This document shows positions 24,184 through 64,000 of a DNA stretch of 64,000 bases, in pieces. The notes below the pieces were generated by a model. That model did not search any database, was not told the origin of the DNA, and worked only from the letters and a program-made list of their open reading frames with translations. The stretch is from assembly GCA_018672285.1 (NCBI GenBank), contig JABHGC010000099.1, positions 4,734 through 68,733 of the forward strand, in the 5' to 3' direction. This DNA comes from Methylococcales bacterium (GTDB lineage Bacteria; Pseudomonadota; Gammaproteobacteria; JABHGC01). The translations under genes and the position numbers were made by a program. The first letter of the stretch is position 1; each line of letters opens with the position of its first letter.

Positions 24184-24285
24184 CCTTTTTTGTAAATTTT
24201 TTCAATTTAATTTTCAAAACAATATATTCTTCTTTTTCTTGGTTTTACTTCTTATTATTCAAACAACAAAAAACCCATAAATAAA

Positions 24286-27200: not shown

Positions 27201-28317
27201 GATTTTGCATAATGTCATCAAAAATAGAGACAACGGAATTGGTATCATTTAAATCAAAAATCCGACCATTCACTTCATCAATAATTTGCTCTGTCACGCT
27301 ACCAATTCGATTGGCTAGCACAGGCACTTGAGATGCAAATGCCTTCTCAATCAAATAACTAAACCCGGTATCAACACAATCTGAAATGAGCAACATATCG
27401 GTGTTTAAGAAAACATCTTCAAGTTGTATTTTTTGTGTTGCGAAATTGACTTTCACCGCACCACAATAACCTTCATCCGAGTTAAGCGACTGCATATATG
27501 CATCATCAATTGTCTCACCGTATACATTAATAACAGCCTGTACCTCTGACTGCTCTTTAACATCCACAATAGCAGACATTAATTCAGCCAAACCAGACTG
27601 CTTATTAACATCACCAACATAACTAAAGCGAAATACGCATGGATCAATTGGTCGCTTTATTTTTTGTGTACTCTGAAATAATCGATCTACCTGACTGATT
27701 GAAGCCTGTGTTAGTGATATTTTTTCACGTTTAACACCCGCATCTAATGCTGTTTTCTTTAGCGCCCGACTAACAACGACAACACGATCCACATACTGAT
27801 TGATAAGGCCAACAGTTTCTGATAACCGTACCGAACCTATTTCCCCTGCTGCTGAAGGCTCAGAAAACTCACTGTTTTCAAACATCCAATAATCGTGAAG
27901 TGATAATTTAACCGTATACCCAGCTTCACTGGCTACCTTTAATATACCGGCACCAAAAGAACCACAGTGCTGAACATCCACTAAATCGGGTTTAATTTCT
28001 TGTAACTGGGCCAGCAACATTTTACTCGCCCTGTCATTGTCTAATGGCTCTCGGCCATTTTCCTGCTTAGGCCAACCAAAGACTCGGCGCCTCTCGTAGC
28101 CATCTACTCGGGTAATATCGACGTCACCTTGGTGAGCGACTGCATTTTTTGCAACGGGTTCAAGCACTGTCAGTTTATAACCTATCTGAGCCATTGCTCG
28201 GCAAGACTCACTAATCATATGCACCGTTGAGCGATCAAACTCACTACTTGGCACTATGACGAGAATTCGACGCTCTTCAGGTAACTTATTATCATTATTG
28301 CTTGAATCGTCTGACAC
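24286..28317 (-). CDS. 1343-aa multidomain glycosyltransferase (GT-B-like N-terminal domain, two GT-A/GT2 domains, GT-B-like C-terminal domain); putative flagellin glycan glycosyltransferase
   Basis: GT2 signatures: FSLVIPVRASDQ...SLESQLYQNWAVTIV and VSIVIPNKDMMKYF...EILVVDNQS...CLNNDIQI. The N-terminal and C-terminal thirds have Rossmann-like GT-B features. Gene lies directly upstream of, and on the same strand as, the four flagellins. Confidence 0.7.
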   Translation of the reverse strand: MSDDSSNNDNKLPEERRILVIVPSSEFDRSTVHMISESCRAMAQIGYKLTVLEPVAKNAVAHQGDVDITRVDGYERRRVFGWPKQENGREPLDNDRASKMLLAQLQEIKPDLVDVQHCGSFGAGILKVASEAGYTVKLSLHDYWMFENSEFSEPSAAGEIGSVRLSETVGLINQYVDRVVVVSRALKKTALDAGVKREKISLTQASISQVDRLFQSTQKIKRPIDPCVFRFSYVGDVNKQSGLAELMSAIVDVKEQSEVQAVINVYGETIDDAYMQSLNSDEGYCGAVKVNFATQKIQLEDVFLNTDMLLISDCVDTGFSYLIEKAFASQVPVLANRIGSVTEQIIDEVNGRIFDLNDTNSVVSIFDDIMQNRESVYDFQCNIRFPRFWRDWVNAEYQRYTSLLNDDFNINLVAQVLDCTEGQIAAIESNNRLYQEWVDNHSMREADGQFMAERMGHKWTAFPVFSLVIPVRASDQVALSQTLASLESQLYQNWAVTIVSTEPAPGEIFNQSEVLRWFQVPSDSEIMPEINAYVKQSQWDWTLLVQPGTEFDPTCLFSFADYINVHPEWSLIYTDDDEIGAAGEYCNPKFKTDINLDYIRSYNYIGDLVAIRTYVLQSLDGYILSEGVEVHDLVLKVIDTCTENMVGHIAKILMHEPLREAPRVKQSLLDDRTKSVIEGHLERQNIRAEVSDGYLIGTHRVNYQHSEQPLVSIVIPNKDMMKYFRPCIESIFEKTIYQNFEILVVDNQSIADETFAYYDEIQATYPGKIRLLSYAQPFNFSAMNNMAVAEAAGEYIVCLNNDIQIIQGSWLERLLSHAQRPEVGIVGARLLTSDKRIQHAGVILGLDGIAGHAFSGQSIEDEGYMKRAQVDMNYSAVTAACLMVKKSIYDEVGGYDEVNFTVQYNDVDFNLKVREKGYKIVYTPYATAIHYGSVSQITYNEHKKVARDTQEKRVMLEKWLPELISDPAYNVNLSLSDTRCIFEPEFEVSWDTNFTDTHKVIGFPTNTGAITEHRMKAPFRNLNDVAKIDYAYMPTFDMKPEFRLPTLTEFERWKPDSILLPTTVTNQHLEFIKHIDQYSSVFKVFDLEDLKTVVPDKNSRKSILFPNMERRLRDALSYCDRLIVTTEPIKQAHQDLIDDIQIVPIYLEKSRWGNVVSLRKQGLKPRVGWVGAPQHLGDLELIFDVVKATYKSVDWVFMGMCPEELKDYVAEAHGYVMFEDYSEKMASLDLDLAIAPLEIHPFNEAKSHLRLLEYGAMGWPVVCTDIYPYQNGPVKRVKNTKEAWVEAIMERVTDLDSTAKEGDELKKWVHDNWMLEDNLDVWMNALTPGDQVESLKQLHKKAI

Positions 28318-28747: not shown

Positions 28748-29728
28748 TTACCGAGAGGCTCTCTCATGTCGCTTTAATAAGTACCGGTATCGTGATTTCT
28801 TTTTTAACTGCGCTATTTTACGTATCGCTTTAGGGTTGCCTAATCTAGCAGACTGCACCAACCAATACGCCGCTTTATCTAAACGCTTACGCTGAAAAAA
28901 TGTCAGTGCTTTTTCAAACTCTTTTTCCCCTGCACCTATTGACGGTACAATAACCGCATTATCATCAGCTATATCATCGGCAGCAACATCATCAGTCTCA
29001 GCAGTTTCGCTTGTGTTTGCGACCAACTGAAAATCGAACGTCGTACTTGCAGCAGTTAATGCAACCCAGTTCTGCTTCATCTGATAACCAGGCGCAGATA
29101 CTTCTATATGATACCGTCCAGGTGTCAACAACATACCTGGCTGATATTTAGGGGCAATATTAAGCACTTTAATTTGAGCACTCGCAGGCACAACCGTCAC
29201 ATTCAATGGCAAAGAGACAGCACCTGCCACTATAGGCGCTGCCTCAGGTGCGCCTGCCAACTGCCTTGCCAGATCAGGCAAACCAACACTAGGCAACAAA
29301 CCCAGCTCAGCCTCTGGCGATACAATTTGACCACTTTTTAGTATTTCACCCGTTGTTGCATCTAACAATTGAGCGGTCACGGTCACCATATTGCCAAACT
29401 TAACCACCGTCCCCGTCACAATGGCCTGAACACCATACAGATCTCCCACCTTATTAGCGCGGGCCTTATCGCTCACATGCTCAGAGCTAGAGAGCACCTG
29501 CTCATCCAACACTTTACGAATTAATATGCGCTCCATCAGCTTAAACTGCTGCGTCGAGCTTAAAGGGTGAATAAAGGTTTGTGCAAGCCCCTTACCCTCT
29601 AGTGCAACCCCGCCACTGACTTCAAAATCAACGACGGCGACGTACATTTTTTCTTCGGCAGAAAAACCAACAACACTATATAGACACAAGCAAAAACCAA
29701 TTAATATTTTATTCATCATCATCGTCAT
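28748..29728 (-). CDS. exported protein with CsgG-like N-terminal domain, PEGA-like domain and Sel1-like C-terminal repeat; translationally coupled to the NRPS gene
   Basis: Signal peptide. YVAVVDFE...G..LAQTF...ERILIRKVLDEQVL...GVQAIVTGTVVKFGNMVTVTAQLLDATTGEIL matches the CsgG/FlgP-type lipoprotein-fold motif pattern. PGRYHIEVSAPGYQ is PEGA-like. KAAYWLVQSARLGNPKA is Sel1-like. The start overlaps the NRPS stop by 13-20 nt. Confidence 0.5.
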   Translation of the reverse strand: MTMMMNKILIGFCLCLYSVVGFSAEEKMYVAVVDFEVSGGVALEGKGLAQTFIHPLSSTQQFKLMERILIRKVLDEQVLSSSEHVSDKARANKVGDLYGVQAIVTGTVVKFGNMVTVTAQLLDATTGEILKSGQIVSPEAELGLLPSVGLPDLARQLAGAPEAAPIVAGAVSLPLNVTVVPASAQIKVLNIAPKYQPGMLLTPGRYHIEVSAPGYQMKQNWVALTAASTTFDFQLVANTSETAETDDVAADDIADDNAVIVPSIGAGEKEFEKALTFFQRKRLDKAAYWLVQSARLGNPKAIRKIAQLKKKSRYRYLLKRHERASR

Positions 29729-35700: not shown

Positions 35701-38700
35701 ACAGCCATCAATTCTTTTAGCATGACCTGGCTGGACCAACCATCAGCAATAATATGATGGATGGTTAACATCAATACATGATGATTGTCGGTCAACTGTA
35801 ATACAGTACATTTAAACAGTGGGCCTTCAGCTAAATTAAAGACGGTATTTTGATCTTGTTGTATTCGGAGCCTCACTTCATCAGATTGGCGCTCTATGTC
35901 ATAACAGCCAATATCAAACTGCTCAACAGTCACGCGAGCCTCTGGGTCAATCACTTGAACGGCAATGCCTTGCTCATCAGGGAAACGTGTTCGCAGCACT
36001 TCATGGCGCTGACTAATCGTTGTAATAGCGATTTGTATTGCAGTAACATTCAGCCCACCTTTTATGGTGACTGCCGAGGCAATATTATATTGCGTTGACT
36101 CCGGAATGAGATTTTGTATAAACCACATCCGTTCTTGGGCAAACGATAATGGCGCCCTAGCAGACATTGATTCATCTCTAACTTGAATATCATTCGTTTG
36201 GCCTGCTTCAAGTTGCACAATATTTTCCGCCAACCTTTTCACTGTCGGTTGCTGAAAAATATCCGCCAGTGGTAGCTCTACAGCATATTGCTTTCGTATC
36301 CAAGATATTAACTGTGTGGCAGACAAGGAGTGCCCACCGAGTGCAAAGAAATTATCTTCAACGCCCACTTTACTAATGGCCAACAATTCAGACCAATACT
36401 GACACAGCTGCTTTTCTAAAGTTGAGCTAGGTGCGACATAGCTTAACTGTTGTAAATCAGGGGTAGGCAATGCTTTTTTATCAATTTTGCCATTAGGCGT
36501 CAGCGGGAATTCTTGTAATGAGACAAACCGTGTTGGCACCATATAATCGGGTAGGAAGGTGGCAATAGACTCACTCAACAACGCTTGATCAAAGCTCCCC
36601 ACTAAATAGGCCACTAAAACATCATCAACAACCATCACAAAGGGGTGTAGTTTTGCATCATACCCTCTGATAGCAAACTCAATTTCGCCAATTTCAATTC
36701 TAAGCCCACGCAATTTAACCTGACTATCAACTCGACCCACAAAAACCAATTGACCATCGGCTCGGTAATACACCAAATCCCCTGTTTGGTACATTTCCTG
36801 CCCGGTAGTAGGGTTCTTTATGAATACTTTCTGGGTTTTTTCAGCATCATTAATGTAGCCTAAGCTCACCCCTGCTCCTGAAATATAAAGCTCACCTGTA
36901 ATTCCAATCGGCACCGACTGTAACTGACTATTGAGCACGAGCAGGGACACATTGTCGTTTGGCCGACCGATAGGAATGCTGTGCCCACCCTTCAAGTCTT
37001 TTGACTTAAGCTCATAAAAAGCAGCGATATCAGTACATTCTGTTGGCCCATAACTATTAAAAACGGTGACAGATGACTGAGTGCAATAATCCTTAATTTT
37101 CGATCGCTCTATCGGCTCACCACCCAAACAAATCGATTTAAGTGATGACAACGCGCCATATTGTGATGGCAATTCACATAATGGATAAAATGCACTTGGC
37201 GCACAGTTCAATAGCGTTGGACGATATTTACTCATGGTATTCGCAATATCATCCACATCGTAATGGTCAAACTGAGGAAAAATCAAACGCCCGCCTTGCC
37301 AGAGCAATGCAAAAAGGTTCTTCTGGGTTAAATCAAAACCAAGCGCACTAATGATAATGGCGCCATCCGCCTCGTCAATTGAGAGTGTTTTGGTGTACCA
37401 ATGTAATAAATTGGCAATACCAGAATGCTTCACCCCAACCCCTTTTGGTTGACCTGTTGAGCCTGAGGTATAAATCATATAGGCCAATGCGTTTGACGTG
37501 GTTGCAACGGTAGAAAAGGTGGCAACATCAACTTTAACCGGCTTATCAAGGTCCACTCTAATACCTGAATAATCAGGTAACACATTCAGGCGTGACTGAG
37601 ACAGCAATACTTGAGCTTGGCAATCCTCAACGATGTATTGCAACCGAGCGTTCGGGTAAGTGGGGTCTAATGGCACGTAATAACCACCGGCTTTTAGCGT
37701 TGCCAATAAGGCCACGATAAAATCAGCACCTCGGCTGGTACAGATTGCAACCGCTTGGTTAGATGTGATGCCTAAGCGTTGCAATCTCGTTGCCAAAGAC
37801 AATGACTGCTGTTCAATATCTCGATATGTAAAGCACTGTTCACCTTGCTGAACGGCTAAAGCGTCAGGGTTGTTTTGCATTTGTAACTGTATTGCATCGA
37901 TGATATTGCTGTAATTTGGCTCATGAATGGCTGACGTATTATTCCAGCGGTCCAACTGGGCATTTTCTTCCCCAGTTACCCACGATAAATCAGCAATCGT
38001 ATCAACGCCCTCAACAAACTGTTCAATCACCGACTTCAAGCGTCTCATTGCGGCAAAGCTATTAAAATCTTGTGTGTGATAATGGCATTCAAGCAAGAGA
38101 TCATCACTCATTTGCTTTGCAATGAGCTGAACTTGGCCAACAGGTACTCTTGGTGGGTAATGCTGCAAACGCTGCTTTTGCCCCATAAAATCAATGATAT
38201 GGTGAAAGTCATAGTAATTATAAAGAAAACCAATTCGCCCATGTTGAATCAATTTTTGCTGCTGCAACACAGAGATATTTTGTGCAGAACCCAACTGTTT
38301 TTGGGCTTGCTTAATGTGGTTTAAATACTCACTCAGTACATTAGATGGTTGCATTAATGCTTGTTGAAACAGCACTGGGACTTGCTGATAATAACAGCCT
38401 ATCGCCCTGTTATGCTGTTTTTTACGACCAGAGATAATTTCATAGACAACAAAATCATTGGTAGGGCGACAATATTGCTGTAAAAGCAACCCGTAAAGTG
38501 ATTTCAAAACCAATGAAGGTGTTGACTTATGGCGCCGGCATGCAGATCTGAATTGCTTCCACAATGCGCTACCAATCGACACACTGTCACACAACTGCTC
38601 CACCTTTGTGACGTCCGGCTTCGGAAAATCAAGAGGCTGAACATCTTTAAGTTTGGATTGCCAATGTAATAAATCATCTGCAAGATCAAATACAGCGGCT

Positions 38701-41700
38701 TGGTCATGAACATAATCCGTAAAATCGACAAACTCAGGCTGCCATGTTTCACCAGAAGACTGTGCCTGGTACACCTGACAGACTTGCTGCATGTGCAACG
38801 TGCCACCAGCACCATCAATTGATAAATGATGGCCTGCCAATAAACTCACATAATGCTCATCTGCCAACTTAAACAAATAATGACAAATCAATGCATCTTT
38901 AGACACATTAAACGACCGGTAAACTTCAGCATTGATGTAGTTTAAAAATTCTGAATGACTCAGTTTCATAGCGGATAGATCACGATAATCTAAAGCCACT
39001 TTTTTGGTTTTTGCGACCGCTAGATAGGCCATATCTAAATACGGCTTATCCGCAGGGACAACATCAGTCCGCAGTACTGAGTGCACATTGGTCACAACTT
39101 GCAATGCTTGCGCCCATTGATCAGGGTCAATATCCGTTCGCATCTCAAAACTACAGCCGAGACTATTATCCAACGTATCAGCATGCACATGGCTATGCAT
39201 ATACAAATCACGCTGAGTCGACGTTAACGGGACAATATACTCGTAGTCCTCAGGATTGAGTGACAGCGCAAGGTACATTTGGTGGTCAGGAAATAAAGCA
39301 TAACTCGACAACGCTTGATCCGGCAATGACACCATTTGCCCGAGTAAATATTCAAAGTGCCGTGAAAATTGCTCGATAGTGGATTGGTCAAACAAATCGG
39401 TATTGTATTCAATATTTCCGACTAAATTGTCGCCATGAGGAGAGTCATGCAACATTAAAATCAAATCGTATTTAGCCGTATCGGTTGTTATTTCATAAGA
39501 ATCAACCGATAACGCCTCTAATGTCATATTGGTCGATGGCATGTTCTGTAATGCAAAACCAACTTGCGCGATCGGTGGGTAACTTAAATTTCTCTCAGGC
39601 TGCACCGCATCCACTAATGCTTCAAATGGCAAATATTGATGTGCAAAACCACCCACCACCGCTTCTCTGGTTTGCTGTAGCAATTGCTGACCGGTCAAGT
39701 TACCGCTTAACTGACCCCGAAAGACCAAGGCATTGACAAAATATCCAAGCATGCGTTCTGTTTGTGCAGATTCCCTACCCGCAATTGGCGAGCCGACGAC
39801 AATATCGTCCTGTCCACTATACCGAGACAGCAATAACTGATATGTCCCTAATAACAGCATAAACAACGTTGATTGATTGTCTGATGCGTATTTTTTAGCC
39901 GCATTCGTCACTTCACCATCAATGGTAAAGGATAACGTTCGGCCATTGGTTGTTTGCACAGCAGGTCTTGGCCGATCTGTTGGTAATGAAAGCACCGCAG
40001 GAATGCCCTTAAGCTGGGAGACCCAATAAGCGAGTTGCTCTTCTAAAACGTCACCTTGTAAGTACCCTCTTTGCCAATGTGCAAAGTCTGCATACTGAGT
40101 ATGTACCGGTTGTAGCAGTGTACCTTTACCTGAATCATGGCTTTGATACAGCACCATTAACTCTTCATTAAAGATGCTATTCGACCAACCATCAAAAATA
40201 ATGTGATGAATATTCACACAAAGGATGTGCAACTCTTCTGACAAAGCCACACACATGACCCTAACAAGATCATCATACTCTAGATTGAACGGGGTCAGAG
40301 AGAACTCAGAGATCAAGGCATCCACATCACTACCCGAATCTTCAGCAGGTGACTCTATCGACACCCAATTGATGCCCAAAGAGGATTTTGGCATGATTTC
40401 TATGGCAGCCGAACCCACTCCCGAGACAATTTTAGCGCGTAATATTTCATGACGAGCCAACATATCATTCAGCGCAGCTTGCAGTGCAACACGATTCAAT
40501 GGGCCCTTTAGCTGGATGGCTGACGGGATGTTATAAGCTGGACTTTCAGGTTGTAATTGGTACAACAACCATAACCGCTCTTGAGCGAAAGTCAGCGGTA
40601 TGGTATTGGCTCGGTCAATGGCTACGATTTGTTGTTCATTAGGCTTTATTTGCTGTAATAACCGGGCAATCTTTTCAATGCTAGTGTGGGCAAATATATC
40701 TTTTAAAGCAATCGACAAGCCCATCTGCTGATCAATTTTCGTGATCAACTTTATTGCAAGCAGTGAGTGCCCTCCGAGCGCAAAAAAGTCATCTAATACA
40801 CCAAATTCTTGCGTAGGTAGCAGTGTTTGCCATATTTCAAATAAAGCCGTTTCCCAGTAATCCCTTGGTGGCACGAGCGCCACAGGCGTGTTTAGGTCAC
40901 CACTTTGTGACAGTTTTATTGCTAACGCTTTTTGCTGCTCAATAGAAGCCTGACACGCATCAACAGAGAGCAATGTTAGCTTTTCAACTAAGACCCCAGG
41001 CGACTCAACAGCCAAAGTTAATAACTGGATATAATGCTCAGCCATAGCAGAAATACTGGTCGAAGAAAACCGAGTGACATCAAACTCCAACGCCCCAGCA
41101 ATGCCTGAATCTACCTTCTCTAAGGTAATACTGACATCATATTTAGCGGTATTATGCGCCAATGCATACGATTCAACATCAAGGTTTGAAAAACCATCAG
41201 AAAAATCAATATCGGACTGATTTTGAAAGGTAAACAGCGTTTGAAAAATAGGTGGTTGCATTGTGTTTCGCACAATATTTAGCGCGTCAACAATTTGCTC
41301 AAATGGGATCACTTGATGAGTAAAGGCATTCAACAAGTCATGTTTAAAAGCCATCAAATATTGATCAAAGCTCAGCTCAGCGGCAACATTAGATCGAATA
41401 ACAACCGTGTTCACAAAAAACCCTATTAATGGCTGAACTTCATGCCACTGCCTGCCTGCAACAGGTGTCCCTACACAGACGTCATGCTGAGATGAGTACC
41501 TGTGCATCAACAAACAATAACCACTCATCAAGATCATATAGAGCGTCACGCCTCGAGCTTTTGCCATTTTCTCAAGCTCGACCACCAATTCATCAGGCAA
41601 TGTAAAGTGGTACAAATCACCACGACGCTCAACACCAGGTTCAGGTTCATGATCAAATGGAAGAGACAGCACCACAGGGTCAGCCAAATACTTCAACCAG

Positions 41701-50700: not shown

Positions 50701-53700
50701 GCATGGCCAATCGGCAGTGGATATGGCTTATCATAAACCCCATCTGTGATTTTATAATACGCGGCAATATCCGTACATTCTGTTGGCCCATAACTGTTAA
50801 TCAAGCTTGATTTATTGTGTGATAACCAATCAGAAATAGCAGTAAGTTCTATTGGTTCCCCCCCTAACACCACTGTTTTTAAGGAAGCTAAGGCACTCCA
50901 ATTCGCACGATTTTCAACCAATGGATAAAAGGCACTTGGCGCACAATTGATATAACTGATTTGTAAACGTTCAACCGTCTCAACAATGTGATCCACGTCG
51001 TAATAATCAGACTCAGGGAAAACTACCGTGCCACCTGACCACAAATTAACAAACAAATTCTTTTGCGTTAAATCAAAGCCCAATGCACTGATAATCAATG
51101 TTTTTGATGTTGCAGACGTACTCAGCGTTTTCTGGTACCAAGATAATAGATTAATCACGCTTTTCTGGGTAACGGCAACCCCTTTAGGTTGGCCTGTAGA
51201 ACCCGATGTATAAATAATATACGCCAGCTGTTCAGGTTCAATAGTCACATGGGGTGCTTCATGACCAAAGCCATCCAAACAACCGGCTTGTCTTAAATCT
51301 AGCTGGCACACGATATTTGCGTCTATGCCTGCGTGAATAAGAAATTTCACTTCAGCATTATCTAAAATATATTCAATTCTATTTTCGGGATAGCTTGGAT
51401 CAATAGGCACATAGCACCCACCTGCTTTTAAAATCGCAATCTGAGCCACGCTAAAATCAACAGATTTTGACAAGCCAATAGCAACAGGCTGATTGGTCTT
51501 CAAGCCATTGTCTAATAAGTAGTTTGCAATTTTATTAGAACGCTCATCAAGTTCTCTATAGCTTACCTGAGTATCTCCTTGAACCAAGGCAATGGCATCA
51601 GGTGTCGCTTTAACGTGTTGCAATAAAGGTGCTAGCAAACGGGGGATTTCTTGCTGTGACACGGCAGAGGATTCACGCAACTGCTGCAGATCTGCCTCTT
51701 CATTCGGCATTAAATACGATAAATCAGATATCATCTCTGCTTTATGGCAGATTTGATGAACTAAGTGAATATAACGATCAATAAAAGACAGGTCATCGAA
51801 TACGGCCACATCGTAGTTAATCATTAACTCTATGCTGTCGCCTCTAACCTGAGGAACAAAATGAACCTCTCCAGGTCTTGCATGTGCAGGGAAAATATTA
51901 ATAGGATATTGTTCTGCACCTATATCAACACTACTTTTAAAATTAAAAAAATTGAATATATAAGTTGATCTACCTGTATTGATATTGTCTTTAATAAATT
52001 CTGTCGTAACATTCCGGACCAATTTATCATGTGCTTCAGAATAGCCAACATGATTAAAGTATTCAATGCACGTCAAGTCACCAGAAAAGTCTTTGGCAGC
52101 GTAATATTTAGGCTCTGCACTAAAAAAACAACCGAGTACAGCCTTATTATCCTCATTTCTTTGGGCATTGATATTCAGAACCACAAAATCTTTTTCCGCG
52201 CGACAATAATGGCTCAATAATAAAACATAAATCCCCCGCAGAAAACGTGCTACTGGAATCGAATTTTCATTACAATATTGCTGTATTTCTTTATTTTGAC
52301 TGACTGTCATCAACCGGTTTTGATTCACGATTCTTGACGAATCACTGATTAATTTTTTAAAGTCTAACGGCTCAATATCTTCACGTTTTTTCTGCCAAAA
52401 TTGATAAGCTTGTGCTTGATCAAACTGGCCCCGCAACTCGGGCACAAAAGATGAAAATGGTTTCACGCTTTCTTGCTCAGGGTCATCTGATGTTGAGCAA
52501 TGATATTGCTGCATAACCGCATTCAAATACAGTGACTCTGAAAAGCCATCCATCATCACATGATGCATTGCAACGATTAAAACGCACTTACTCGGGGTAC
52601 TGACTAATTTATGTCTAATCAGTGGGTGCCGCTCTAAGATATAAGGCTGATTGATAAAGGCCTGTGTAAGAGAGGATAACTGAGTATCATCAGTGATTGT
52701 TTGTGCTTCAAAAAAGGTATTTTTTTGCTTTTTAACCGCAAAATAGACATTTTTCATATCTCCTTGCAGTAGCGTTTTGACCTCAGACCTTAGCAGGTCA
52801 TTCGCGTCCGAAACCTGTTGCACTGCGTATTTAAGCCTTGCAACATCGATATTTTTTGGTAATTCAATCGCACAACCAATACTACTGGATATTTCATTTG
52901 GATTTATCTCAGCCGACAAAAACAATGAATGCTGTACCGGGCTCATTGCAAAGGCACTTAAATACGTTTCGTTTGATAAACCGAGTAACAACAACGCGTC
53001 TGCTTTTGGCAGCCAATCGATGGCACTCACAGGCGCAGAGCTGTTATCAAGAAAATATTCAATTAACCCTGTCAATGCATTTAGCAACGCCGTCAGGTTT
53101 TTAGGTGATATCACTCCCAATTGAACTTTTAAGGTCAGCTCATAAGCATTACCCGAGGTATTAGCCAACATGACAATTTTTGCGTTATGGCTTAACTCAT
53201 CACACCTTGCGCCCTGAATGCTTTGAAAATGAAAATCATCATGCTTTAGCGGACACCCTTTAAGCGCAGGCTTTACAATCAAATCTTGTAATTCAGGGTT
53301 ATTGGCTAAATCACTTTGGTATAGCTGAACAAAAGAAAATGCATTCAACGCTAGATCATAATTTTTCTGAGCGGTTATTAGATCTGCTGCAGTCCATGTG
53401 ATTGACTCAACATGCTGCCACTGCGTCAAAAGCAATGGAAACAACGATTGTAATACGGCGTCTTTGGTTAGCTCATGACGGTGACAAAATTCTGCCAACC
53501 GTGAACACAGTGCCTTGTCCACTGAGAGACTTGCTTCAGAAAACTCATTCGAATCAACCTGCGCGGGCAATGTATAAAGGATCTCATCTGTCACAATGTC
53601 ATGGAGACAATTCTTCTGAGCATGGTCAAATAAACGGTATTGATTACCAGAAAAGTGAATAACTGCCTTTCCAAGGCGTGAAATAGGTTGCTCTTGATGA

Positions 53701-55955: not shown

Positions 55956-58900
55956 TTGATTTTTTTCGACGCCTTGTTTTTTTAGTAAGGGGTTTGATAT
56001 CTGCAATTTTTTGACTATCAGCGACTTTGTCGGCCAAGTCAATGGCTTTTGAAAGACCTTCTAAAGTCGGCTCATCAAAAAATACCTGCAAAGGTATTTT
56101 GCACGAAAATTGGCTCAATATTCTAGAAAGTACTTGTGTCACTAACAATGAGTGCCCGCCAAGCTCAAAAAAGCTATCACCGCGATTAACTTTGTCGATA
56201 CTGAGTACTTCACACCAAATTTTCGCCAGTGCTTTTTCTGTATCCGTTTCAGCTTCACCACTGATTTTTTCAGTAGAGTCAATATGTTCTGGCGCAGGCA
56301 GTGCTGCACGATCGACCTTTCCACTATCGAGTAAAGGTAATCCATCTAAGTGAACGAACGATTTAGGTACTAAGAATTCAGGGAAGTAGCCATTGAGGTA
56401 ACGCCTTAAGTGACCCATTGTATGAGTAGATAACCAATAATGTTCAGATTGCATAACACTAAGCACACTCTGATAAAACCGTACCTGTGTTTCTTTATCG
56501 ATATTTAATTGAACACTGGCGAAGGTATTATTGACCCACAATAACTTGCCCTCAACCCAGCTTGAAACAGACTCACCTGGAAGTGCGATCAGCAATGATA
56601 TCAAGTCATCTTGACGACACTCTTTAGGTACATTTTTAAGTCGAATATACCCCACGGACAAATCTTCGGTATCCACTTTATACAAATGCCCCGAAGACAT
56701 TAATTTGAGCTGGCACTGTTGATGCAACGGTACCCTGAGACGTGAGCGTCTTGGGTCTGAGACATTCAATCTTCTCAAGTCAAATAAATTAAAGCCATGA
56801 TCAGCAATGATACCTGAAATCATATCACTGACCTGACCGACATCTTCACTTAACTCTAACAAAATGCCAGCAGATCCGGACTGGCACCACACCATTTTAC
56901 CGGTAATTTTTCCGACCTGAGGGAAGTTTTCTAACTCGAGGCTGACTCTCTGCCCTTTTTGCCAGTAACTTGGCACGTTCATTAACTTCAAGCCACGCTT
57001 TGAGATATCTTCAGTGGTCACGGTAACAGGGTCATGCCCTTCTACTCTTGCTGTACAACTAATTTTAAACAGCACTCTATCAGCAACAATGCTCGACACC
57101 AAATAGGCTACTAACCCCATTTGCCCTTTCTCATCTTTCCTAGCCACCACCACACTTTCATGTACGGCAGGATGCTCATTCAATACCGCTTCAATCTCTT
57201 CTAACTCTACCCGGTAACCTCTAATTTTAATTTGTAAATCAGAACGACCTACGTATTCAAGTTCCCCTGTTGCTAACCATCGAACCAAATCTCCTGTCTG
57301 ATACAATCGGCTTTGTTTGCTACTAGAAAACGGATTATGAATAAACCTAGCCTGAGTCATTTCCATTTGATTCAAGTAGCCCGAAGACAAACCTTCACCC
57401 GCGATGAACAATTCGCCAACAACACCTGTCGGTACAACATTCAAGTGCTGATCAAGCACATACACCTGGTTATTATTAATCGGCTGACCAATGGGCACAG
57501 ACTCACCTATGTGGTGCTTATCCGCAACACCAAAAGTCGCATCGATTGTCGCTTCAGCAGGCCCGTACAAATTAATTAATTGGCAGGATAAACGGCTGAA
57601 AAATTGTTGTGCCAACTCTTGAGGGAAAACTTCACCACCACAAAAAACGGTTCGCAATGAGGTACATTCTGAGAATTGTGGTTGCGCGACTAATTCGCGC
57701 AATAAGGTCGGTACAACTTGCAACAAAGTAATCTGCTGGCTCAATATCAACTCAATTAAGCGTTTTGCATCACCCACTTCATTTAAGGTCGTTACTTGGT
57801 TTTCAACTTGATTGGGTGCTGGCAGCGCGGCATAATCAATTTTACCATTCGCAGTGAGCGGCACAACATCAATTGAGACAAACGAAGACGGAATCATATA
57901 TTCAGGAATTCTCAGCTTAATAAATTGCCGAATATCCACAAACTCTATGTTGGTCGGTTTAACGATGTAACACACAATTTGTGGCTCACCGTGGCGATCA
58001 TCTTTAACAATGGTAATATTTTCTTTAACACCTGGGAATGCTGCAATGGCGGACTCAACCTCACCAAGCTCAATACGATAACCCCGTAGCTGCACTTGAT
58101 GGTCCATTCGGCCTAAATACTGCACTTCTCCGCTAGGTAGATACCGAGCCAAATCACCAGAGCGATATAACTTACCTGGAATACCCGGAAGTTGAACAAA
58201 GCGGCTTGCCGTCAACCCAGCCCGATTATGATAACCGCGCGCAACACCCTCACCAGACACACAAATTTCACCCGGTACACCCACTGCTACCGGCCTATTT
58301 TGGGCATCTAAAATATGAAGTTTCAACCCATTAATGGGTTGGCCTATAAAGTTCAAGGTGCTCATGGTTCTCAGGGCGAAATCAACATCTTCCTGTGTCA
58401 CCGGCCTGCAGGTCACATGTACAGTCGTTTCCGTAATACCATACATATTCGAAAGCTTAGGCTGGCTATCACCGTGGCGCATAACCCAAGGCTTGAGCTT
58501 TCTATAGTCTAAAACTTCGCCGCCAAAGATGACTTCTCTAAGTACCAGTGCATTTTCATCATTATCTGCCGACCTGAACAACTGCTCTTCTGCAGAGATC
58601 AACTGATAAAATTCTGATGGGGTTTGGTTAAGAATGGTCACTTTTTCTTTCACGAGCAACTGATAAAATGCTTCCGCATCTTGACTGCAGCTATCTGGCA
58701 CCAGCACCAAACGGCCGCCATACATTAATGCCCCCCAGGCTTCCCACACTGAAAAATCAAAAGCACAAGAGTGGAACATAGCCCACACATCATTGTGATC
58801 AAAATCAAATAATGGTGCTGACTGATCCATCAGACTTAAAATTTGAGCATGTTCTACCATCACACCTTTAGGCTTACCTGTTGATCCAGAAGTATAAATC

Positions 58901-61900
58901 ACATAAGCCAAACGACTGCTTGAGATACTAATATTAACCGACGTATTTGGCTGTGAAATAACACTCTTATCTTGTGTTTCAAGTATTTCAATATCCTGGC
59001 TCGCAATACCTTTAATCGTTTTAACATGTCTTGGTTGAGTAATGACGAGGGGTATTTCAGTATCTTCAAGAATCCACTCAACCATATCTTCCGGTGCAGT
59101 AGGGTCAAGCGGTACATAACAACCACCTGCTTTGAGTACGGCCAGCATAGCAATCACTTGGTCTACAGAACGGTCTATAAACAAGCCAACATATGTTTCC
59201 TGTTCAACGCCCATTGCCAATAAACAATGCGCCATTTGATTGGATCGGTGCTCAAGCTCTGCATAGGTAAGTTGCACATCGTCATATCCCACAGCAACTT
59301 GCAGTGGGTAGGCCTCAACCATCGCCTCAAATCTTTGCACCAAAGACCCTGACACAGGCTCACTGTCAACCTTGTTATCAGGCTCAATGACTGAGCGCTC
59401 AACAGGTAACGACAGCATCCCTAAGGTGACAGGACTTTCAACAATTTGTACGAGCAGTTGCTGCAGCTGATTAAAAAAACCAAAATCGGTAAAGTGATGA
59501 GAATGGTAAGTCAGTGTTAACCTTAAGTCAGACCCCACCTGCTCACTTGACAACCATACAGAGGACTCTTCATTCTGGTTGATCATTCCGTGATCGGTAT
59601 AATAAAATGCGGTTTTTCCTGTGGTGACAGGCTGATCTAAACAAATGCCACACAACAGTGGTAGCTGCTCATAAATCGTCCGACAACGGTTTAAACGTGC
59701 CCACAACTCCTGACAGGTTGCGACCTCATGAAATAGCTCAGGTGAAAAAACATACAACACTTGATTATCCGCATTCTGAACGGGGAAATACCCTTCAGGT
59801 CGACAATATTGATATACCCACCAAGCTTGCAGCCCAATCAAACATTCAAAAATTTTCATCGAATGGCTGTCACAATACTGCTGAAGTTTTTGGTGCAAAT
59901 CTGGACTCAACGTAAACTGCTCTGTTTTCCAGGCACCGGTATCTTCAACCATAACCGGGTAATTAAGTGCTTCTATTTGGTCATAATCACGTTTCCACTC
60001 TGCGATAATGCCACCCAGGTAACACAAGGTTGGGTTATAAAATGCGGCATTCATTTCTAAAACAAGTTCACCACCACTTAATAGCGGTAGCCAAAATTCT
60101 GTGACAGATGCATCAAAGCTCATTGGTGAGCGCTGCAACATCCGATCAGATTCGCTCAACTCAAATTCTCTCTGCATCCACTGCATGTGGTTATATGCCG
60201 CTTTATGAGGAACCACAACCCCCTTCATCGCACCGGTACTACCAGAGGTATAAATCTGATACATCGGATCGTTGGTTGACACACCACTGATTAAATTTTT
60301 TGTGCTGAGCGTTAAGACATCTTCCCAGCCTTCATCCACTAAAAACAGCTGCATTTGTGAACGTTTAAACTGGCGCCCACGGATAGAATCGGTCATCAAC
60401 ATTAAGGGTTTAGCATCTTGCAGCATCTGCTCAATACGGTCTTTCGGACAGCTTGCGTCAAACGGAATATAACACCCCCCAGACTTAGCCACCGCTAGCA
60501 TAGATATAACCAGCTCTATTGAGCGTGGCAAATGAATACCAACACTAATATTTGGACCAACATTTTGCATCCGTAGCCAATGCGCGAGTTGATTGGCCTT
60601 TTCATTTAATTCTCTATAAGTCAGTTTTTCATGGCCTAATGTGACGGCTATCGCATCCGGCGTATATTCAGCTTGATCCTCAAACAACTGGTGCACACAG
60701 ACACGCTCAGGAAAATCAACTTGGGTATCATTCCATTCATTCACCAAACGGTTTTTCTCAGACTCTGGCAATAAAGAAATTTTGGCAATGGGTGTTTCTG
60801 GTTGGCGAATAATGTTATTTAACAAGACTTGAAGCTGACTTAAAATACGCTCAATGGTTGCCTCTTCAAACAGATCGGTATTGTATTCCATTTGAGCGAT
60901 CATGCCTTCTTGCGACTCACTCAAACTTAACCACAAATCAAATTTTGCAGTGCCATTGTGACTATGAAATAACTCGGCATCGACATCTGGTAGTGAGAAA
61001 GCTTCAAGCGGGGTGTTTTGCATGGTGAACATCACTTGAAACAAGGGTGATCGACTGGTGTCACGCTGCGGGTCTAATTCATCGACTAGTCTCTCATATG
61101 GCACATCTTGATTTGAAAATGCACCAAAAAAGACGTCACGAACTCGCCTCACTTGTTCTTGAAAATCAATATCATCATCTAGCGTTGTCTTAATCGCCAA
61201 CGTATTCACAAACAAACCAATCAAGTGCTCAACTTCAACTCGAGTACGGTTCGCAATCGGGAAACCGACCATGATTTCACGTTGACCTGAATACCGATAA
61301 AGCAGCACATTAAACGCGGCAAACAAGGTCATGCCTAAGCTAGCGCCATTGCGCTCACTTAGCTCTTCTAAACCAACAATCAACTCAAATGGAATCAGCC
61401 TTAAACACTGCGCCCCTTGGTAACTTTGCACCAATGGCCGAGGATAGTCTGTTGGTAAATTAAGCACGGGTACATCACCATGCGCCCCGATTTGGTCACG
61501 CCAAAACTCAATTTGTTTGGCCAACACCTCATCGGTTAAAAATGTGTTTTGCCATGCAGAGTAATCAATATACTGAATAGGTAACGCACTCAATCGAACA
61601 GATTTCCCACCAATAAACGCTTTATAAGCGGTCAAAAACTCTGAGCAAAACAAACCGAGTGACCAACCATCTGAGACGATATGATGCATGGTAAATAAAA
61701 ATAAATAATCATCTTCATCCAACACCAACAACTTAGCTCGAATCAAAGGTGGTGCTGTTAAATCAAACCCCTCCGTTCCCTCTTCATCCGCTAAACGCTT
61801 CGCCTCAGCTTGACGCACTTCAGCTGTATCACCTTCTACTTCAATCACAGTAAAAGGCACTTCATCTACCTCTGCAACAAAAGCGACCGGCTCTCCTAAC

Positions 61901-64000
61901 TGGTCTAAATACCCTGTTTTTAAGACTTCATGATGATTTAAAATCGTATTTAAGCTGAATTTCAAAGCATCAATATTGACCTTACCCTTCATCGAAATGG
62001 CAGCAGGCATGTTATAAACGGATGTGTTTTCTAACAAATGATGTAAAAACCACAAACGTTTTTGCGCCGATGACACCGGTAAAAATTCGCTTCTAGTGAT
62101 TACTTTAATATCGGTTTTTGGCAAACTCTTCTGATGCCGATAATGTTTTTCAATATGGCGAGACAAATCAGCAATGGTTGGGTGTTCAAATAACGCCCGC
62201 ACAGGCACTTCTAGTGCAAACCGATCATAAATACGAGCAACCACTTGAGTTGCTAATAATGAGTGCCCACCAAATTCGAAAAAGTTATCTTCAACACCGA
62301 CTCGGATGGCACCCAATACTTGCCCCCAAATCTCAACCAACGCTAATTCTAGCGGTGTTCCAGGTGCAATATACGCATCATCCATTTGCATGCCTGATGG
62401 TGCAGGCAATGCCAAACGATCAACCTTACCATTTGGCATCAATGGCAGGGCATCTAAAATCACAATGTCGTTAGGAATCATGTAAATTGGTAAATAGTTC
62501 TTCAGGAAGACTTTCATCTCCTCTGTCGTTGGTGAATTAACCGGATCAGAGATCACATAGGTCACCAAGCGCTTATTTCCTGGTACATCCTCTCGTACCA
62601 ATGTCACACTCTGTCTTACAGCGGGGTGATCATTAATCGCCGCTTCAACCTCACCCATTTCAATACGATAACCCCGTAACTTGACCTGGTGATCGATTCG
62701 ACCTAAAAATTCGATAGAGCCATCATGCAAATACCGCCCTAAGTCACCACTCTTATAAAGCTTTTGATCAGCCTCAAAAGGGTTGCTAATAAAACTGTCA
62801 TCGGTTAATTCAGGTCGGTACAAGTAACCACTTGCCAAACCTTGACCTGAAATATGAATTTCACCTGGCACACCAACCGGCACAGGGTTTAAAGACTTAT
62901 CTAAGATATAAATCTTGGCATTTGAAATGGGTCTACCAATGGGTAAATTATTTTGCAAATAACGTGGGTCGCACTCCCAAAACGTACTATCAATTGTCGC
63001 TTCTGTTGGCCCATAAAGATTAAATAAGGGTACGTCCAATCTTTCATAGTGCTGTTTTTGCAAATCAAGCGTCAGCGCCTCACCACCACAACAAACCCGT
63101 TTTAAACTACTGATACTTTCAATGCCAATTGTCTCAAGCAGCATTCTTAAAGCAGAAGGTACCAATTGAATGGTCGTCACATTATATTGTTTAATCGCCT
63201 CTAATAAATACGCACCATCTCGGTGACCATCAGGCTTGGCCATCACTAAAGTACCGCCAACCATGAGAGGCGCAAAAAATTCCCAAATAGAGGCGTCAAA
63301 ACTAAAGGGGGTTTTTTGTAACACCACATCATTTGAATCAAAGTTCAGGGCATCCAGCATCCACAACATGTGATTAACAATCGCACGATGAGGAATCATG
63401 ACCCCTTTTGGCCGACCTGTTGAACCTGAAGTGTAAATAATATAAGCCAATTGCTCAGGATCAAAAGCCATATCAATATTGGCTTTGTCAAATTCAGCCA
63501 AATCTAGCGTATCGATGGGTATCATCGTGCTTTTATTACGCTGAGGCATCGCATCGCATAATTGACTGTTGGTTAACACTAACGACAATTTTGCGTCTTC
63601 ACACATATAGGTTAACCGTTCAACAGGATAACCCGGGTCTAACGGAACGTAAGCCCCACCCGCTTTTAAAACCGCTAAAATGGCCACAACCATATCAATT
63701 GAGCGATGCACACAAACTCCAACCAAGAGGTTGTCTGCAACATTATTACTTTGTAAATATCGTGCTAATTGGTTCGCACGTTCGTTCAGTGCCTGATAAG
63801 TGATAGACGCTTGTTCATAACGAACAGCAATACTCTCTGGGCTAGATTCTGCAAATGACTCGAACCAGCTATTCAGTGAGCGCTCTAAAGGGTAATCAAC
63901 ATAATGATCATTCCACTCGACCGTTAACAAGTAACGATCAGCTTCAGTCATTAAAGGAATATCACTCATTGGGCTATCAGACTCACTGAGCAACCCTTGT
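55942..64000 (-). CDS. non-ribosomal peptide synthetase, 5'-truncated by the window edge (at least 2683 aa). Domain order: [C] linker, A, PCP, C, A N-half, C-tail fragment, full A, A C-half containing a PilZ-like insert, PCP, basic C-terminal tail.
   Basis: The frame stays open to position 64000. The first residues (LMTEADRYLLTVEWND) are a C-to-A linker, so a C domain lies upstream of the window. The track start at 63993 is a TTG. Confidence 0.9.
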   Translation of the reverse strand, partial: QGLLSESDSPMSDIPLMTEADRYLLTVEWNDHYVDYPLERSLNSWFESFAESSPESIAVRYEQASITYQALNERANQLARYLQSNNVADNLLVGVCVHRSIDMVVAILAVLKAGGAYVPLDPGYPVERLTYMCEDAKLSLVLTNSQLCDAMPQRNKSTMIPIDTLDLAEFDKANIDMAFDPEQLAYIIYTSGSTGRPKGVMIPHRAIVNHMLWMLDALNFDSNDVVLQKTPFSFDASIWEFFAPLMVGGTLVMAKPDGHRDGAYLLEAIKQYNVTTIQLVPSALRMLLETIGIESISSLKRVCCGGEALTLDLQKQHYERLDVPLFNLYGPTEATIDSTFWECDPRYLQNNLPIGRPISNAKIYILDKSLNPVPVGVPGEIHISGQGLASGYLYRPELTDDSFISNPFEADQKLYKSGDLGRYLHDGSIEFLGRIDHQVKLRGYRIEMGEVEAAINDHPAVRQSVTLVREDVPGNKRLVTYVISDPVNSPTTEEMKVFLKNYLPIYMIPNDIVILDALPLMPNGKVDRLALPAPSGMQMDDAYIAPGTPLELALVEIWGQVLGAIRVGVEDNFFEFGGHSLLATQVVARIYDRFALEVPVRALFEHPTIADLSRHIEKHYRHQKSLPKTDIKVITRSEFLPVSSAQKRLWFLHHLLENTSVYNMPAAISMKGKVNIDALKFSLNTILNHHEVLKTGYLDQLGEPVAFVAEVDEVPFTVIEVEGDTAEVRQAEAKRLADEEGTEGFDLTAPPLIRAKLLVLDEDDYLFLFTMHHIVSDGWSLGLFCSEFLTAYKAFIGGKSVRLSALPIQYIDYSAWQNTFLTDEVLAKQIEFWRDQIGAHGDVPVLNLPTDYPRPLVQSYQGAQCLRLIPFELIVGLEELSERNGASLGMTLFAAFNVLLYRYSGQREIMVGFPIANRTRVEVEHLIGLFVNTLAIKTTLDDDIDFQEQVRRVRDVFFGAFSNQDVPYERLVDELDPQRDTSRSPLFQVMFTMQNTPLEAFSLPDVDAELFHSHNGTAKFDLWLSLSESQEGMIAQMEYNTDLFEEATIERILSQLQVLLNNIIRQPETPIAKISLLPESEKNRLVNEWNDTQVDFPERVCVHQLFEDQAEYTPDAIAVTLGHEKLTYRELNEKANQLAHWLRMQNVGPNISVGIHLPRSIELVISMLAVAKSGGCYIPFDASCPKDRIEQMLQDAKPLMLMTDSIRGRQFKRSQMQLFLVDEGWEDVLTLSTKNLISGVSTNDPMYQIYTSGSTGAMKGVVVPHKAAYNHMQWMQREFELSESDRMLQRSPMSFDASVTEFWLPLLSGGELVLEMNAAFYNPTLCYLGGIIAEWKRDYDQIEALNYPVMVEDTGAWKTEQFTLSPDLHQKLQQYCDSHSMKIFECLIGLQAWWVYQYCRPEGYFPVQNADNQVLYVFSPELFHEVATCQELWARLNRCRTIYEQLPLLCGICLDQPVTTGKTAFYYTDHGMINQNEESSVWLSSEQVGSDLRLTLTYHSHHFTDFGFFNQLQQLLVQIVESPVTLGMLSLPVERSVIEPDNKVDSEPVSGSLVQRFEAMVEAYPLQVAVGYDDVQLTYAELEHRSNQMAHCLLAMGVEQETYVGLFIDRSVDQVIAMLAVLKAGGCYVPLDPTAPEDMVEWILEDTEIPLVITQPRHVKTIKGIASQDIEILETQDKSVISQPNTSVNISISSSRLAYVIYTSGSTGKPKGVMVEHAQILSLMDQSAPLFDFDHNDVWAMFHSCAFDFSVWEAWGALMYGGRLVLVPDSCSQDAEAFYQLLVKEKVTILNQTPSEFYQLISAEEQLFRSADNDENALVLREVIFGGEVLDYRKLKPWVMRHGDSQPKLSNMYGITETTVHVTCRPVTQEDVDFALRTMSTLNFIGQPINGLKLHILDAQNRPVAVGVPGEICVSGEGVARGYHNRAGLTASRFVQLPGIPGKLYRSGDLARYLPSGEVQYLGRMDHQVQLRGYRIELGEVESAIAAFPGVKENITIVKDDRHGEPQIVCYIVKPTNIEFVDIRQFIKLRIPEYMIPSSFVSIDVVPLTANGKIDYAALPAPNQVENQVTTLNEVGDAKRLIELILSQQITLLQVVPTLLRELVAQPQFSECTSLRTVFCGGEVFPQELAQQFFSRLSCQLINLYGPAEATIDATFGVADKHHIGESVPIGQPINNNQVYVLDQHLNVVPTGVVGELFIAGEGLSSGYLNQMEMTQARFIHNPFSSSKQSRLYQTGDLVRWLATGELEYVGRSDLQIKIRGYRVELEEIEAVLNEHPAVHESVVVARKDEKGQMGLVAYLVSSIVADRVLFKISCTARVEGHDPVTVTTEDISKRGLKLMNVPSYWQKGQRVSLELENFPQVGKITGKMVWCQSGSAGILLELSEDVGQVSDMISGIIADHGFNLFDLRRLNVSDPRRSRLRVPLHQQCQLKLMSSGHLYKVDTEDLSVGYIRLKNVPKECRQDDLISLLIALPGESVSSWVEGKLLWVNNTFASVQLNIDKETQVRFYQSVLSVMQSEHYWLSTHTMGHLRRYLNGYFPEFLVPKSFVHLDGLPLLDSGKVDRAALPAPEHIDSTEKISGEAETDTEKALAKIWCEVLSIDKVNRGDSFFELGGHSLLVTQVLSRILSQFSCKIPLQVFFDEPTLEGLSKAIDLADKVADSQKIADIKPLTKKTRRRKKSNGPR
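56449..57096 (-). other. 216-aa YcgR-like insert (degenerate PilZ-N-like domain plus canonical PilZ domain) within an adenylation domain, between motifs A8 and A9
   Basis: aa ~2300-2515. PRRSRLRVPL-(23 aa)-DLSVGYIRL...VEGKLLWVNNTFASVQL matches RxxxR...DxSxG...GxVxW PilZ hallmarks. The preceding half reads DISKRGLKLMNVPSYWQKGQRVSLEL...VGKITGKMVWCQSGSAGILL. It is flanked by A8 (GRSDLQIKIRGYRVELEEIE) and A9/A10 (FPEFLVP...DSGKVDRAAL). Confidence 0.55.
57820..59331 (-). other. complete adenylation domain of a different subfamily (A5 motif NMYGITETTVHVT), nested inside a split A domain
   Basis: aa ~1555-2058 with motifs A1 to A10. No PCP follows it. The sequence runs straight into the C-terminal half (A5-A10) of another A domain. 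Confidence 0.7.
59404..60696 (-). other. N-terminal half of the split A domain (motifs A1-A4, YTSGSTGAMKG...FDAS) fused to a ~170-aa fragment of the C-terminal end of a condensation domain
   Basis: aa ~1100-1312 carry A1-A4 and diverge after GGELVLE. aa ~1360-1530 resemble C-domain motifs C4-C7 and the domain end (LHQKLQQYCDSHSMKIFECLIGLQAWWVYQYCRPEGYF ... LRLTLTYHSHHFTDFGFFNQLQQLLVQIVESP). Confidence 0.55.

Follow-up and report, generated by a model that had tools for sequence, protein, structure and literature searches.

Adenylation (A) domains of non-ribosomal peptide synthetases (NRPSs) can be interrupted by a second domain, and such A-M-A enzymes have been sorted into families 1-7 (Lundy et al. 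2020, PMC8341866). In the abstract of that 2020 census, the interruption sites given are a2-a3, a6-a7 and a8-a9 (numbering of the core A-domain motifs) and the inserts are methyltransferases only. Insertions are usually tolerated in the a8-a9 loop, and the census mentions neither PilZ nor cyclic di-GMP (c-di-GMP). The subject of the present analysis is a large NRPS encoded in 64,000 nucleotides of a Methylococcales bacterium (contig JABHGC010000099.1, positions 4,734 to 68,733; this whole stretch is called the window), in which one A domain is interrupted by a tandem PilZ module. As in the interrupted enzymes of PMC8341866, the foreign domain lies in the a8-a9 loop and both halves of the A domain are intact. 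In contrast to those enzymes, the cargo is a signalling receptor instead of a catalytic methyltransferase, and the same A domain is interrupted again at a4-a5, by half a condensation (C) domain and a whole A domain. Neither insert includes a tailoring catalyst (methyltransferase, ketoreductase or oxidase). The nested C-terminal C lobe plus A domain appears to resemble the recombination units (C acceptor lobe plus A) of the exchange unit (XUC) concept, but it sits inside an intact resident A domain and does not replace it.

Through PilZ domains, c-di-GMP gates polysaccharide synthases and flagellar motors, and its known effects on secondary metabolism are, to our knowledge, transcriptional. The cellulose synthase BcsA and Alg44 also have PilZ fused to a biosynthetic enzyme and are both among the fold matches of the window module, and the profile of the module's family aligns its RxxxR and (D/N)xSxxG motifs to BcsA residues 692-783. 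However, these are membrane glycosyltransferases, whereas the window enzyme is a cytosolic thiotemplate synthetase with an internal, tandem PilZ module whose second motif is non-canonical. The two-domain c-di-GMP receptors YcgR, MotI/DgrA, PlzA, VCA0042/PlzD and MrkH share with it two barrels, each with a helix, and an RxxxR motif in the inter-barrel linker. In contrast, they are free-standing and have the flagellar motor or DNA as their target, and TM-scores over both barrels reach only 0.3-0.4, the barrel orientation being different or undefined.

The closest described assembly lines are the NRPSs primed by a fatty acyl-AMP ligase (FAAL), such as PvdL and the cyanobacterial laxaphycin-type enzymes. 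A FAAL-acyl carrier protein (ACP)-C start is found in an orthologue of the window enzyme, and a specificity code of homoserine (Hse) type is shared with the laxaphycin NRPS, whereas the lack of epimerization (E) and thioesterase (TE) domains, the tandem C domains, the nested A domain and the PilZ insert set the window line apart. The PilZ-interrupted A domain and the A-in-A interruption are new variants of an NRPS otherwise of known kind. The reading that we favour, if only slightly, is that the region encodes two large subunits of a fatty-acid-primed lipopeptide synthetase that would be under PilZ control at module 2. The broader proposal, that PilZ-interrupted A domains are an undescribed class of c-di-GMP effectors, here controlling a Hse/Gln-rich lipopeptide beside flagellin genes, is put forward tentatively and falls somewhat short of an even call.

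The tandem PilZ insert of module 2

Searches with Pfam detected AMP-binding, AMP-binding_C, Condensation and PP-binding domains, and no others, in both NRPS proteins, with PilZ (PF07238) as an addition in subunit 1, where it scored 46.4 bits against a cut-off of 22.5 and was split into two stretches. The PilZ domains occupy residues 2297-2524 of subunit 1, within the outer A domain of module 2 (Table 1). The insertion point, between the LVAYxVS strand behind a8 and the LPxYMxP sequence of a9, is identical in five lineages, namely the window, an orthologue on a JGI contig (L052, see below), Kamptonema (P0001), a JGI protein (P0016) and a metagenome-assembled genome (MAG) of Anaerolineales (L002). 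Along the insert, the motifs DISKRG (first barrel, PilZ1), RRSRLR (linker) and DLSVGY (second barrel, PilZ2) were read, of which the linker motif ahead of PilZ2 corresponds to RxxxR. The outer A domain keeps motifs a3-a10, with TSGSTGAMKG as a3; its first part ends at residue 1317, and a complete inner A domain spans residues 1555-2051. The partial C domain between them, of about 230 aa, has no Pfam match and is 40% identical in L052; its homology is to the divergent C domains called C' below, at their positions 176-425 (E = 3e-9).

The extent of the family was assessed by an exhaustive HMMER search of the 228-aa insert against 1.84 billion cluster representatives (50% identity) at E <= 1e-3. 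This returned 62 matches, at least 53 of which are NRPSs with the order A domain, residues 1-38 of its C-terminal subdomain (A_sub), one or two PilZ domains, A_sub residues 42-76, and peptidyl carrier protein (PCP). So far, these PilZ-interrupted NRPSs come from filamentous cyanobacteria, an Anaerolineales MAG and the present Methylococcales lineage. The named relatives belong to Microcoleus, Oscillatoria and Kamptonema, which are gliding forms, and have no annotation beyond "amino acid adenylation domain-containing protein". Among P0129, P0131, P0142 and P0001, some have one PilZ domain and some two; P0144 and P0187 carry PilZ in two different A domains. Word-indexed protein searches recovered mostly ordinary NRPSs with the C-terminal 632 aa of subunit 1, only two of them with PilZ, and two unrelated PilZ proteins with the insert profile.

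An alignment of 18 tandem inserts revealed five invariant residues. These are R10, S35 and G38 (both within the barrel 1 motif DxSxxG), R124 (second arginine of the linker DLRRxxxRVPL) and S150 (within the barrel 2 motif DxS). Barrel 2 has (D/N)ISxGG as its consensus in the family, and the canonical pair RxxxR...(D/N)xSxxG is present in 29 of 61 members; one relative with canonical motifs is WP_190485037.1 of Microcoleus sp. FACHB-831. In the profile, these motifs align to RRSHR...DFSDGG of the PilZ domain of E. coli BcsA. When the insert was modelled with AlphaFold2 and the family alignment, two six-stranded barrel-plus-helix units were obtained (pLDDT 85.7), whereas the single sequence gave a poor model (pLDDT 53). 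The top matches in the PDB, by Foldseek, were PlzA with c-di-GMP (7MIE), MotI/DgrA (5VX6), VCA0042 with c-di-GMP, MrkH and YcgR, each with a probability of 1.0. A full-text literature search, in which subscription journals are thinly covered so that absence is not proof, found no description of PilZ in an NRPS or A domain.

Architecture and predicted product of the assembly line

The initial annotation had described more than 11,400 aa of NRPS with at least nine PCPs on two colinear minus-strand genes, the upstream one running off the window, and all of this was borne out. The open reading frame (ORF) of subunit 1 (55942..63993, minus strand) has 2683 visible aa and continues beyond the window at its 5' end. 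Subunit 2 has 8777 aa when read from a TTG; public gene calls start it at the ATG at 55955, which gives 8748 aa, so that the two proteins together amount to at least 11,431 aa. Their frames are uninterrupted over >8 kb and 26.3 kb, respectively, and contain nine GGHSL carrier motifs, two in subunit 1 and seven in subunit 2.

To obtain a domain map, both proteins were searched with domain seeds from subunit 1 (phmmer) and the gaps with Pfam. The core motifs of the A (a1-a10), PCP (GGxS) and C (HHxxxDG) domains were confirmed by Pfam and motif scans. The nine A domains announced in the initial annotation are indeed intact, but they are not distributed one per module: module 2 has two, nested in each other, module 6 has none, and a tenth A domain (residues 478-1047 of subunit 2) is degenerate. 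As nine intact A domains face nine PCPs with which they do not pair one to one, the surplus inner A domain of module 2, of Thr type, is suggested to load in trans, perhaps at the A-less module 6.

Three modules contain two C domains in tandem. The first of each pair is an ordinary C domain of LCL type, with Txo1/2 and TycC as best PDB matches, and its C-type motifs and LCL-type matches led us to reject its being a disguised E domain; no E domain was detected in the whole assembly line. The second (C') keeps HHxxxDG, yet it is only 19-30% identical to other C domains. A role of C' as a starter C domain was weakened in the course of the comparison, given that starter C domains ranked top in a single-sequence search, whereas the profile search of the PDB placed the C domains of BacC, TycB1 and McyB first, followed by C1 of PvdL. 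The former three are of DCL type, although the line has no E domain. One possibility is that C', as the second C domain of each homoserine module, acts on the gamma-hydroxyl group. Alternatively, C'-A(Hse) cassettes may have been pasted behind a resident C domain, in which case the dead A domain of module 3 could be a remnant of the resident.

Specificity codes of ten residues were read from an alignment to the segment of GrsA-PheA, for which the code DAWTIAAICK was reproduced. Published codes for Gln (DAWQFGLIDK; PMC8313283), Thr (DFWNIGMVHK; PMC12283262) and Hse (DLKNVGSDVK and DLKNFGSDVK; PMC12283262, PMC7524897) served as references for the assignments in Table 1. For the codes of modules 4 and 8 (DAWGGGLVVK and DAISLGLILK), no match was found. 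Read in order, subunit 1 would provide the FAAL-ACP-C start expected from the orthologue, a Gln-like residue and then the residue of module 2 with its two A domains, to which subunit 2 would add seven positions, Hse - X - Hse - (A-less module) - Hse - X - Gln.

The lipid start is seen in L052, a JGI contig of 49% GC that encodes a 3860-aa protein colinear with subunit 1 (62.6% identity over 2674 aa). This protein has retained the nested A domain and half C' as well as the tandem PilZ module and the basic tail, and its 1180 additional N-terminal residues form a FAAL-ACP-C unit. By Pfam, this unit contains AMP-binding and PP-binding domains and a C-terminal part similar to DIP2, and its best NCBIfam matches are fatty-acid--AMP ligase families and the PvdL-type PRK05691. 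Therefore, the product is predicted to be a lipopeptide, as the initial annotation had supposed, and a lipid start followed by a polar, Gln/Hse-rich chain would fit an amphiphile. A second contig of the same sample (L060, 48% GC) encodes the last 3400 residues of a subunit 2 orthologue (51% identity) and keeps the C-C' tandem, the codes and the ending in a PCP and an acidic tail (...MSDEDMDAMLNDLMEEDD). The specificity codes are conserved between the window proteins and both orthologues.

The charged, docking-like termini noted at the outset are present. Subunit 1 ends in the basic tail KKTRRRKKSNGPR, and subunit 2 begins with the acidic MDHDDNEIDLEE and ends, behind its last PCP, in an acidic tail terminating in ...MDDDDDE. 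Both C-terminal tails are kept in the orthologues (KKSRRRRKKA in L052, ...MLNDLMEEDD in L060). The chain may thus be handed from subunit 1 to subunit 2 by contact of the basic tail with the acidic head. In agreement with the initial annotation, Pfam revealed no TE, reductase or terminal C domain in the two proteins, nor in the other ORFs of the window or at the end of L060. Subunit 2 and its orthologue both carry a conserved acidic, helix-like tail behind their terminal PCP, and release would be explained most economically by a partner encoded elsewhere (a TE, terminal C domain or hydrolase) that acts in trans and docks on this tail.

One kilobase downstream of the subunit 1 orthologue, between two response-regulator genes, L052 encodes an alpha/beta-hydrolase of the dienelactone hydrolase family (13626..14414, minus strand). 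It is a candidate enzyme for release in trans; none of the window ORFs scanned proved homologous to it.

Proposed control and competing explanations

In adenylate-forming enzymes, A_sub turns through about 140 degrees as adenylation gives way to thioester formation, and the tandem PilZ module lies in the a8-a9 loop of precisely this subdomain in the outer A domain of module 2, which would make it a control point. In PlzA, YcgR and MrkH, the two barrels are locked to each other when c-di-GMP binds at the linker between them. By the same means, binding of c-di-GMP to the second barrel of the insert and to the RxxxR of its linker would close both barrels and bias or block the rotation of A_sub. 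Loading of the PCP of module 2, the last step before hand-over to subunit 2, and hence the whole line, would then follow the motile/sessile signal; whether this would activate or inhibit is not predictable from the model. Swarming in pseudomonads requires a flagellum and a biosurfactant (PMC11237744), and by analogy c-di-GMP control of a lipopeptide would be biologically sensible.

Several observations weigh against this proposal. In PilZ2, the last Gly of (D/N)xSxxG is lost (DLSVGY in the window, DLSVGF in L052), and PilZ1 is preceded by RxxxK and not by RxxxR. No single barrel of either protein therefore has the full canonical pair, which makes c-di-GMP binding by the window copy uncertain. 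In the PDB, the nearest match to the PilZ1 portion of the profile is a Xanthomonas PilZ protein, a PilZ of type IV pili that is not known to bind c-di-GMP. The local response-regulator-GGDEF protein has a degenerate active site (GDHEY) and is thus no obvious source of c-di-GMP. With regard to the product, the lipid start comes from a 63%-identical orthologue of a different organism with higher GC and not from the window genome; the tandem C domains, dead A domain, A-less module and nested A domain make a colinear prediction unsafe; and neither a TE nor another partner for release was found anywhere examined.

Some of these points would equally suit an ordinary secondary-metabolite NRPS that lies beside the flagellin genes by chance, its PilZ module being a degenerate spacer that does not bind nucleotides or a protein contact like the PilZ of type IV pili. 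This is an unlikely explanation, albeit one of real weight. It agrees with the losses of the last Gly in PilZ2 and of the second Arg ahead of PilZ1, with the type IV pilus match of PilZ1, and with the surroundings of the orthologues and other PilZ-interrupted NRPSs, which are not near flagellar genes. It is also consistent with a promoter scan in which no exact sigma-28 or sigma-54 consensus was matched in the window, the consensus sequences coming from other taxa and the NRPS promoter lying outside the window. A mere spacer, however, is harder to reconcile with the linker R124 and the DxS serines being invariant across 18 diverse inserts, with about half of the family being fully canonical in its motifs, or with best structural matches that are c-di-GMP-bound receptors; and chance placement contrasts with the overlap of the NRPS stop with the start of a CsgG/FlgO-like gene and with the common strand of all these genes and the flagellins. 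That the line makes an acylated siderophore of pyoverdine or azotobactin type, and not a surface-active lipopeptide, appears quite improbable. PvdL-type PRK05691 is the model closest to the orthologue's FAAL start, and azotobactin is rich in Hse, for which there are three modules here, but the codes are Gln-like, Thr and Hse plus two without a match, with no Tyr or Dab codes for a Glu-Tyr-Dab chromophore; no E domain is present, and no hydroxylase, N-oxygenase, TonB receptor or transporter gene was found in the window.

The dead A domain, the truncated C' lobe, the A-less module, the nested A domain and the missing release domain could also be expected of a decaying, non-functional line, or of a metagenome misassembly of NRPS repeats; this we regard as very improbable. 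The reading frames are uninterrupted over their visible length, and the locus recurs, with an identical 8748-aa product, in an independent ENA assembly. Further metagenome contigs and a Methylococcales MAG at NCBI contain its 3' end, and the gene order is repeated in contigs from ENA, JGI and Logan and in one from an NCBI MAG. Therefore, misassembly is unlikely, and so is the pseudogenisation in related strains that the initial annotation had contemplated. Moreover, every odd feature, together with the codes and catalytic motifs, is retained in orthologues from another sample at 51-63% identity, which argues for function and not decay. The NRPS assembly line is intact and under selection. Scans of genome and metagenome contigs yielded no same-species contig extending the locus upstream, the best matches being 50% and 67% identical, respectively; the 65,965-bp JGI metagenome contig to which the window belongs is longer than it by just some 2 kb.

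The tie to motility proposed initially was based on gene adjacency, which proved a weak argument. Downstream of its subunit 1 orthologue, L052 has no large NRPS gene, and instead encodes a response regulator-Hpt protein, the dienelactone-hydrolase-family gene on the other strand and a further response regulator. In L060, a non-coding stretch of 2 kb separates the orthologue from a DDE transposase gene (12293..13567, plus strand), a sign that the surroundings of that copy have undergone rearrangement. Homologues of the CsgG-like, glycosyltransferase and flagellin genes were detected on neither contig, and two other PilZ-interrupted NRPSs lie in hybrid clusters with polyketide synthases (NRPS-PKS) that lack flagellar genes. 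The adjacency to the flagellins is therefore specific to this lineage and at most reflects co-regulation, with no structural requirement. As a finding that would speak against its reading, the initial annotation had named a TE and the remaining cluster elsewhere with unrelated flanks; half of this was observed, as the orthologues have unrelated flanks but no TE was found. A link to motility is nevertheless plausible for another reason, the YcgR/PlzA-like tandem PilZ module inside the A domain, which is the stronger tie.

If the lipopeptide synthetase is controlled as proposed, its loading domain with PilZ would represent a novel type of effector and the first allosteric switch inside an assembly line, which would place non-ribosomal peptide assembly under direct, post-translational control by a second messenger. 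In this uncultured marine organism, production of a surface-active peptide could be coupled to the decision to swim or settle. For NRPS engineering, the range of cargos tolerated by the a8-a9 loop becomes wider, a4-a5 is added as a site of interruption, and a natural design for ligand-controlled NRPSs is at hand.

Locus layout and neighbouring genes

The coordinates of the assembly line and its neighbours are collected in Table 1.

Table 1. Features of the NRPS locus (positions in the window; module numbers follow the assembly line)
Feature	Position	Strand	Basis and remarks
NRPS subunit 1	55942..64000	-	A-PCP-C-A (nested)-PCP-basic tail visible; colinear with L052 1028..12610, 62.6% identity
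A domain, module 1	62425..63864	-	DAWQCGLIDK; Gln-like, 9/10 to Gln code
Outer A, module 2, N-terminal part	60043..60684	-	a1-a4 (a3 YTSGSTGAMKG); seed positions 1-209; motifs
Insert part 1, C-terminal lobe of C'-type domain	59359..60042	-	no HHxxxDG; homology to C' domains
Insert part 2, complete inner A	57841..59331	-	a2-a8 and a10 matched; motifs; DFWNIGMVHK, Thr
Outer A, module 2, resumed	57106..57771	-	a5-a8, first half of A_sub; seed 216-348, AMP-binding_C-type part 1-38; DATQFGLIDK, Gln-like, 9/10 (L052 counterpart exactly DAWQFGLIDK)
Tandem PilZ module between a8 and a9	56422..57105	-	Pfam PF07238; AlphaFold2; Foldseek
Outer A, module 2, end	56317..56421	-	a9 FPEFLVP, a10 SGKVD; seed search, motifs
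PCP, module 2	56044..56229	-	GGHSL motif, seed search; followed by basic tail (55945-56004)
NRPS subunit 2	29709..56042	-	last 3400 aa colinear with L060, 51% identity
Module 3			C - dead A (478-1047) - C' - A - PCP; subunit 2
Degenerate A domain	52902..54611	-	aligns over whole A length; no catalytic motifs; no PCP behind
C'1 (HHVMMDG)	51633..52901	-	divergent; ahead of Hse-type A
Module 4			C - A - PCP; subunit 2
Module 5			C - C' - A - PCP; subunit 2
C'2 (HHILMDG)	44028..45362	-	right behind ordinary C3 (45417-46733); ahead of Hse-type A
Module 6			C - PCP, no A domain; subunit 2
C4-PCP of the A-less module	40662..42278	-	about 40 aa between C and PCP (PCP at residues 5067-5127 of subunit 2)
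Module 7			C - C' - A - PCP; subunit 2
C'3 (HHLSIDG)	37908..39233	-	right behind LCL-type C5 (39282-40601); ahead of Hse-type A
A domains behind C'1, C'2 and C'3	50220-51611, 42618-44015, 36486-37877	-	DLKNVGSDIK, DLKNVGSDIK, DLKNCGSDIK; homoserine, 9/10 or 8/10
Module 8			C - A - PCP; subunit 2
Module 9			C - A - PCP - 64-aa acidic tail; subunit 2
Last A domain (module 9)			DAWQFGLIDK; Gln, exact
Last PCP and 64-aa acidic tail (...GMSDEEMDAMLNNLMDDDDDE)	29712..30083	-	no release domain; same ending in L060
Exported CsgG/FlgO-like protein	28748..29728	-	signal peptide and CsgG/FlgO-type domain; start overlaps NRPS stop
GT4+GT2 glycosyltransferase (1343 aa), four flagellins, flaG, fliD, fliS, fliT	17252..28317	-	neighbours; membership in the NRPS system not shown

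The NRPS genes lie on the same strand as the CsgG-like and flagellin genes, as had been stated. The NRPS was also said to end 420 nt before the glycosyltransferase gene, which does not hold: the CsgG-like gene lies between them, its start overlapping the stop of subunit 2 by about 14-20 nt (translational coupling), and a gap of 430 nt separates it from the glycosyltransferase gene. In the description of its product as an exported CsgG-like/PEGA/Sel1 protein, the signal peptide and the CsgG/FlgO domain were confirmed, whereas PEGA and Sel1 gave no Pfam match, such stretches having been judged by eye only. The CsgG-like protein is 100% identical to a protein of the NCBI Methylococcales MAG, and its distant homologues adjoin TamB/Omp85 or unrelated genes, so that their synteny is uninformative. 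A scan for sigma-70-type promoters and terminators in the window gave results at chance level, and an Rfam scan of the window found no family, c-di-GMP riboswitches included.

Further genes were noted in the flank. The response-regulator-GGDEF gene (16336..17247, plus strand) adjoins fliT; with GDHEY in place of GG(D/E)EF in its active site, its product is probably not an active diguanylate cyclase and could be a c-di-GMP-related sensor. An ORF of 1460 aa (5848..10230, plus strand), for which Pfam gave no match, begins with a membrane helix, followed by a coiled coil and about 800 aa of extremely acidic repeats. The repeats are rich in E/P/A/T, with 310 Glu; the ORF accounts for a peak of AT skew at 6-10 kb, and its product resembles polar landmark proteins of FimV/HubP type. 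Two more signalling genes of the flank encode a CheV-type CheW-receiver protein (1847..2791, minus strand) and a protein with an FHA domain that also matches acyltransferase_3 weakly (13012..13992, minus strand).

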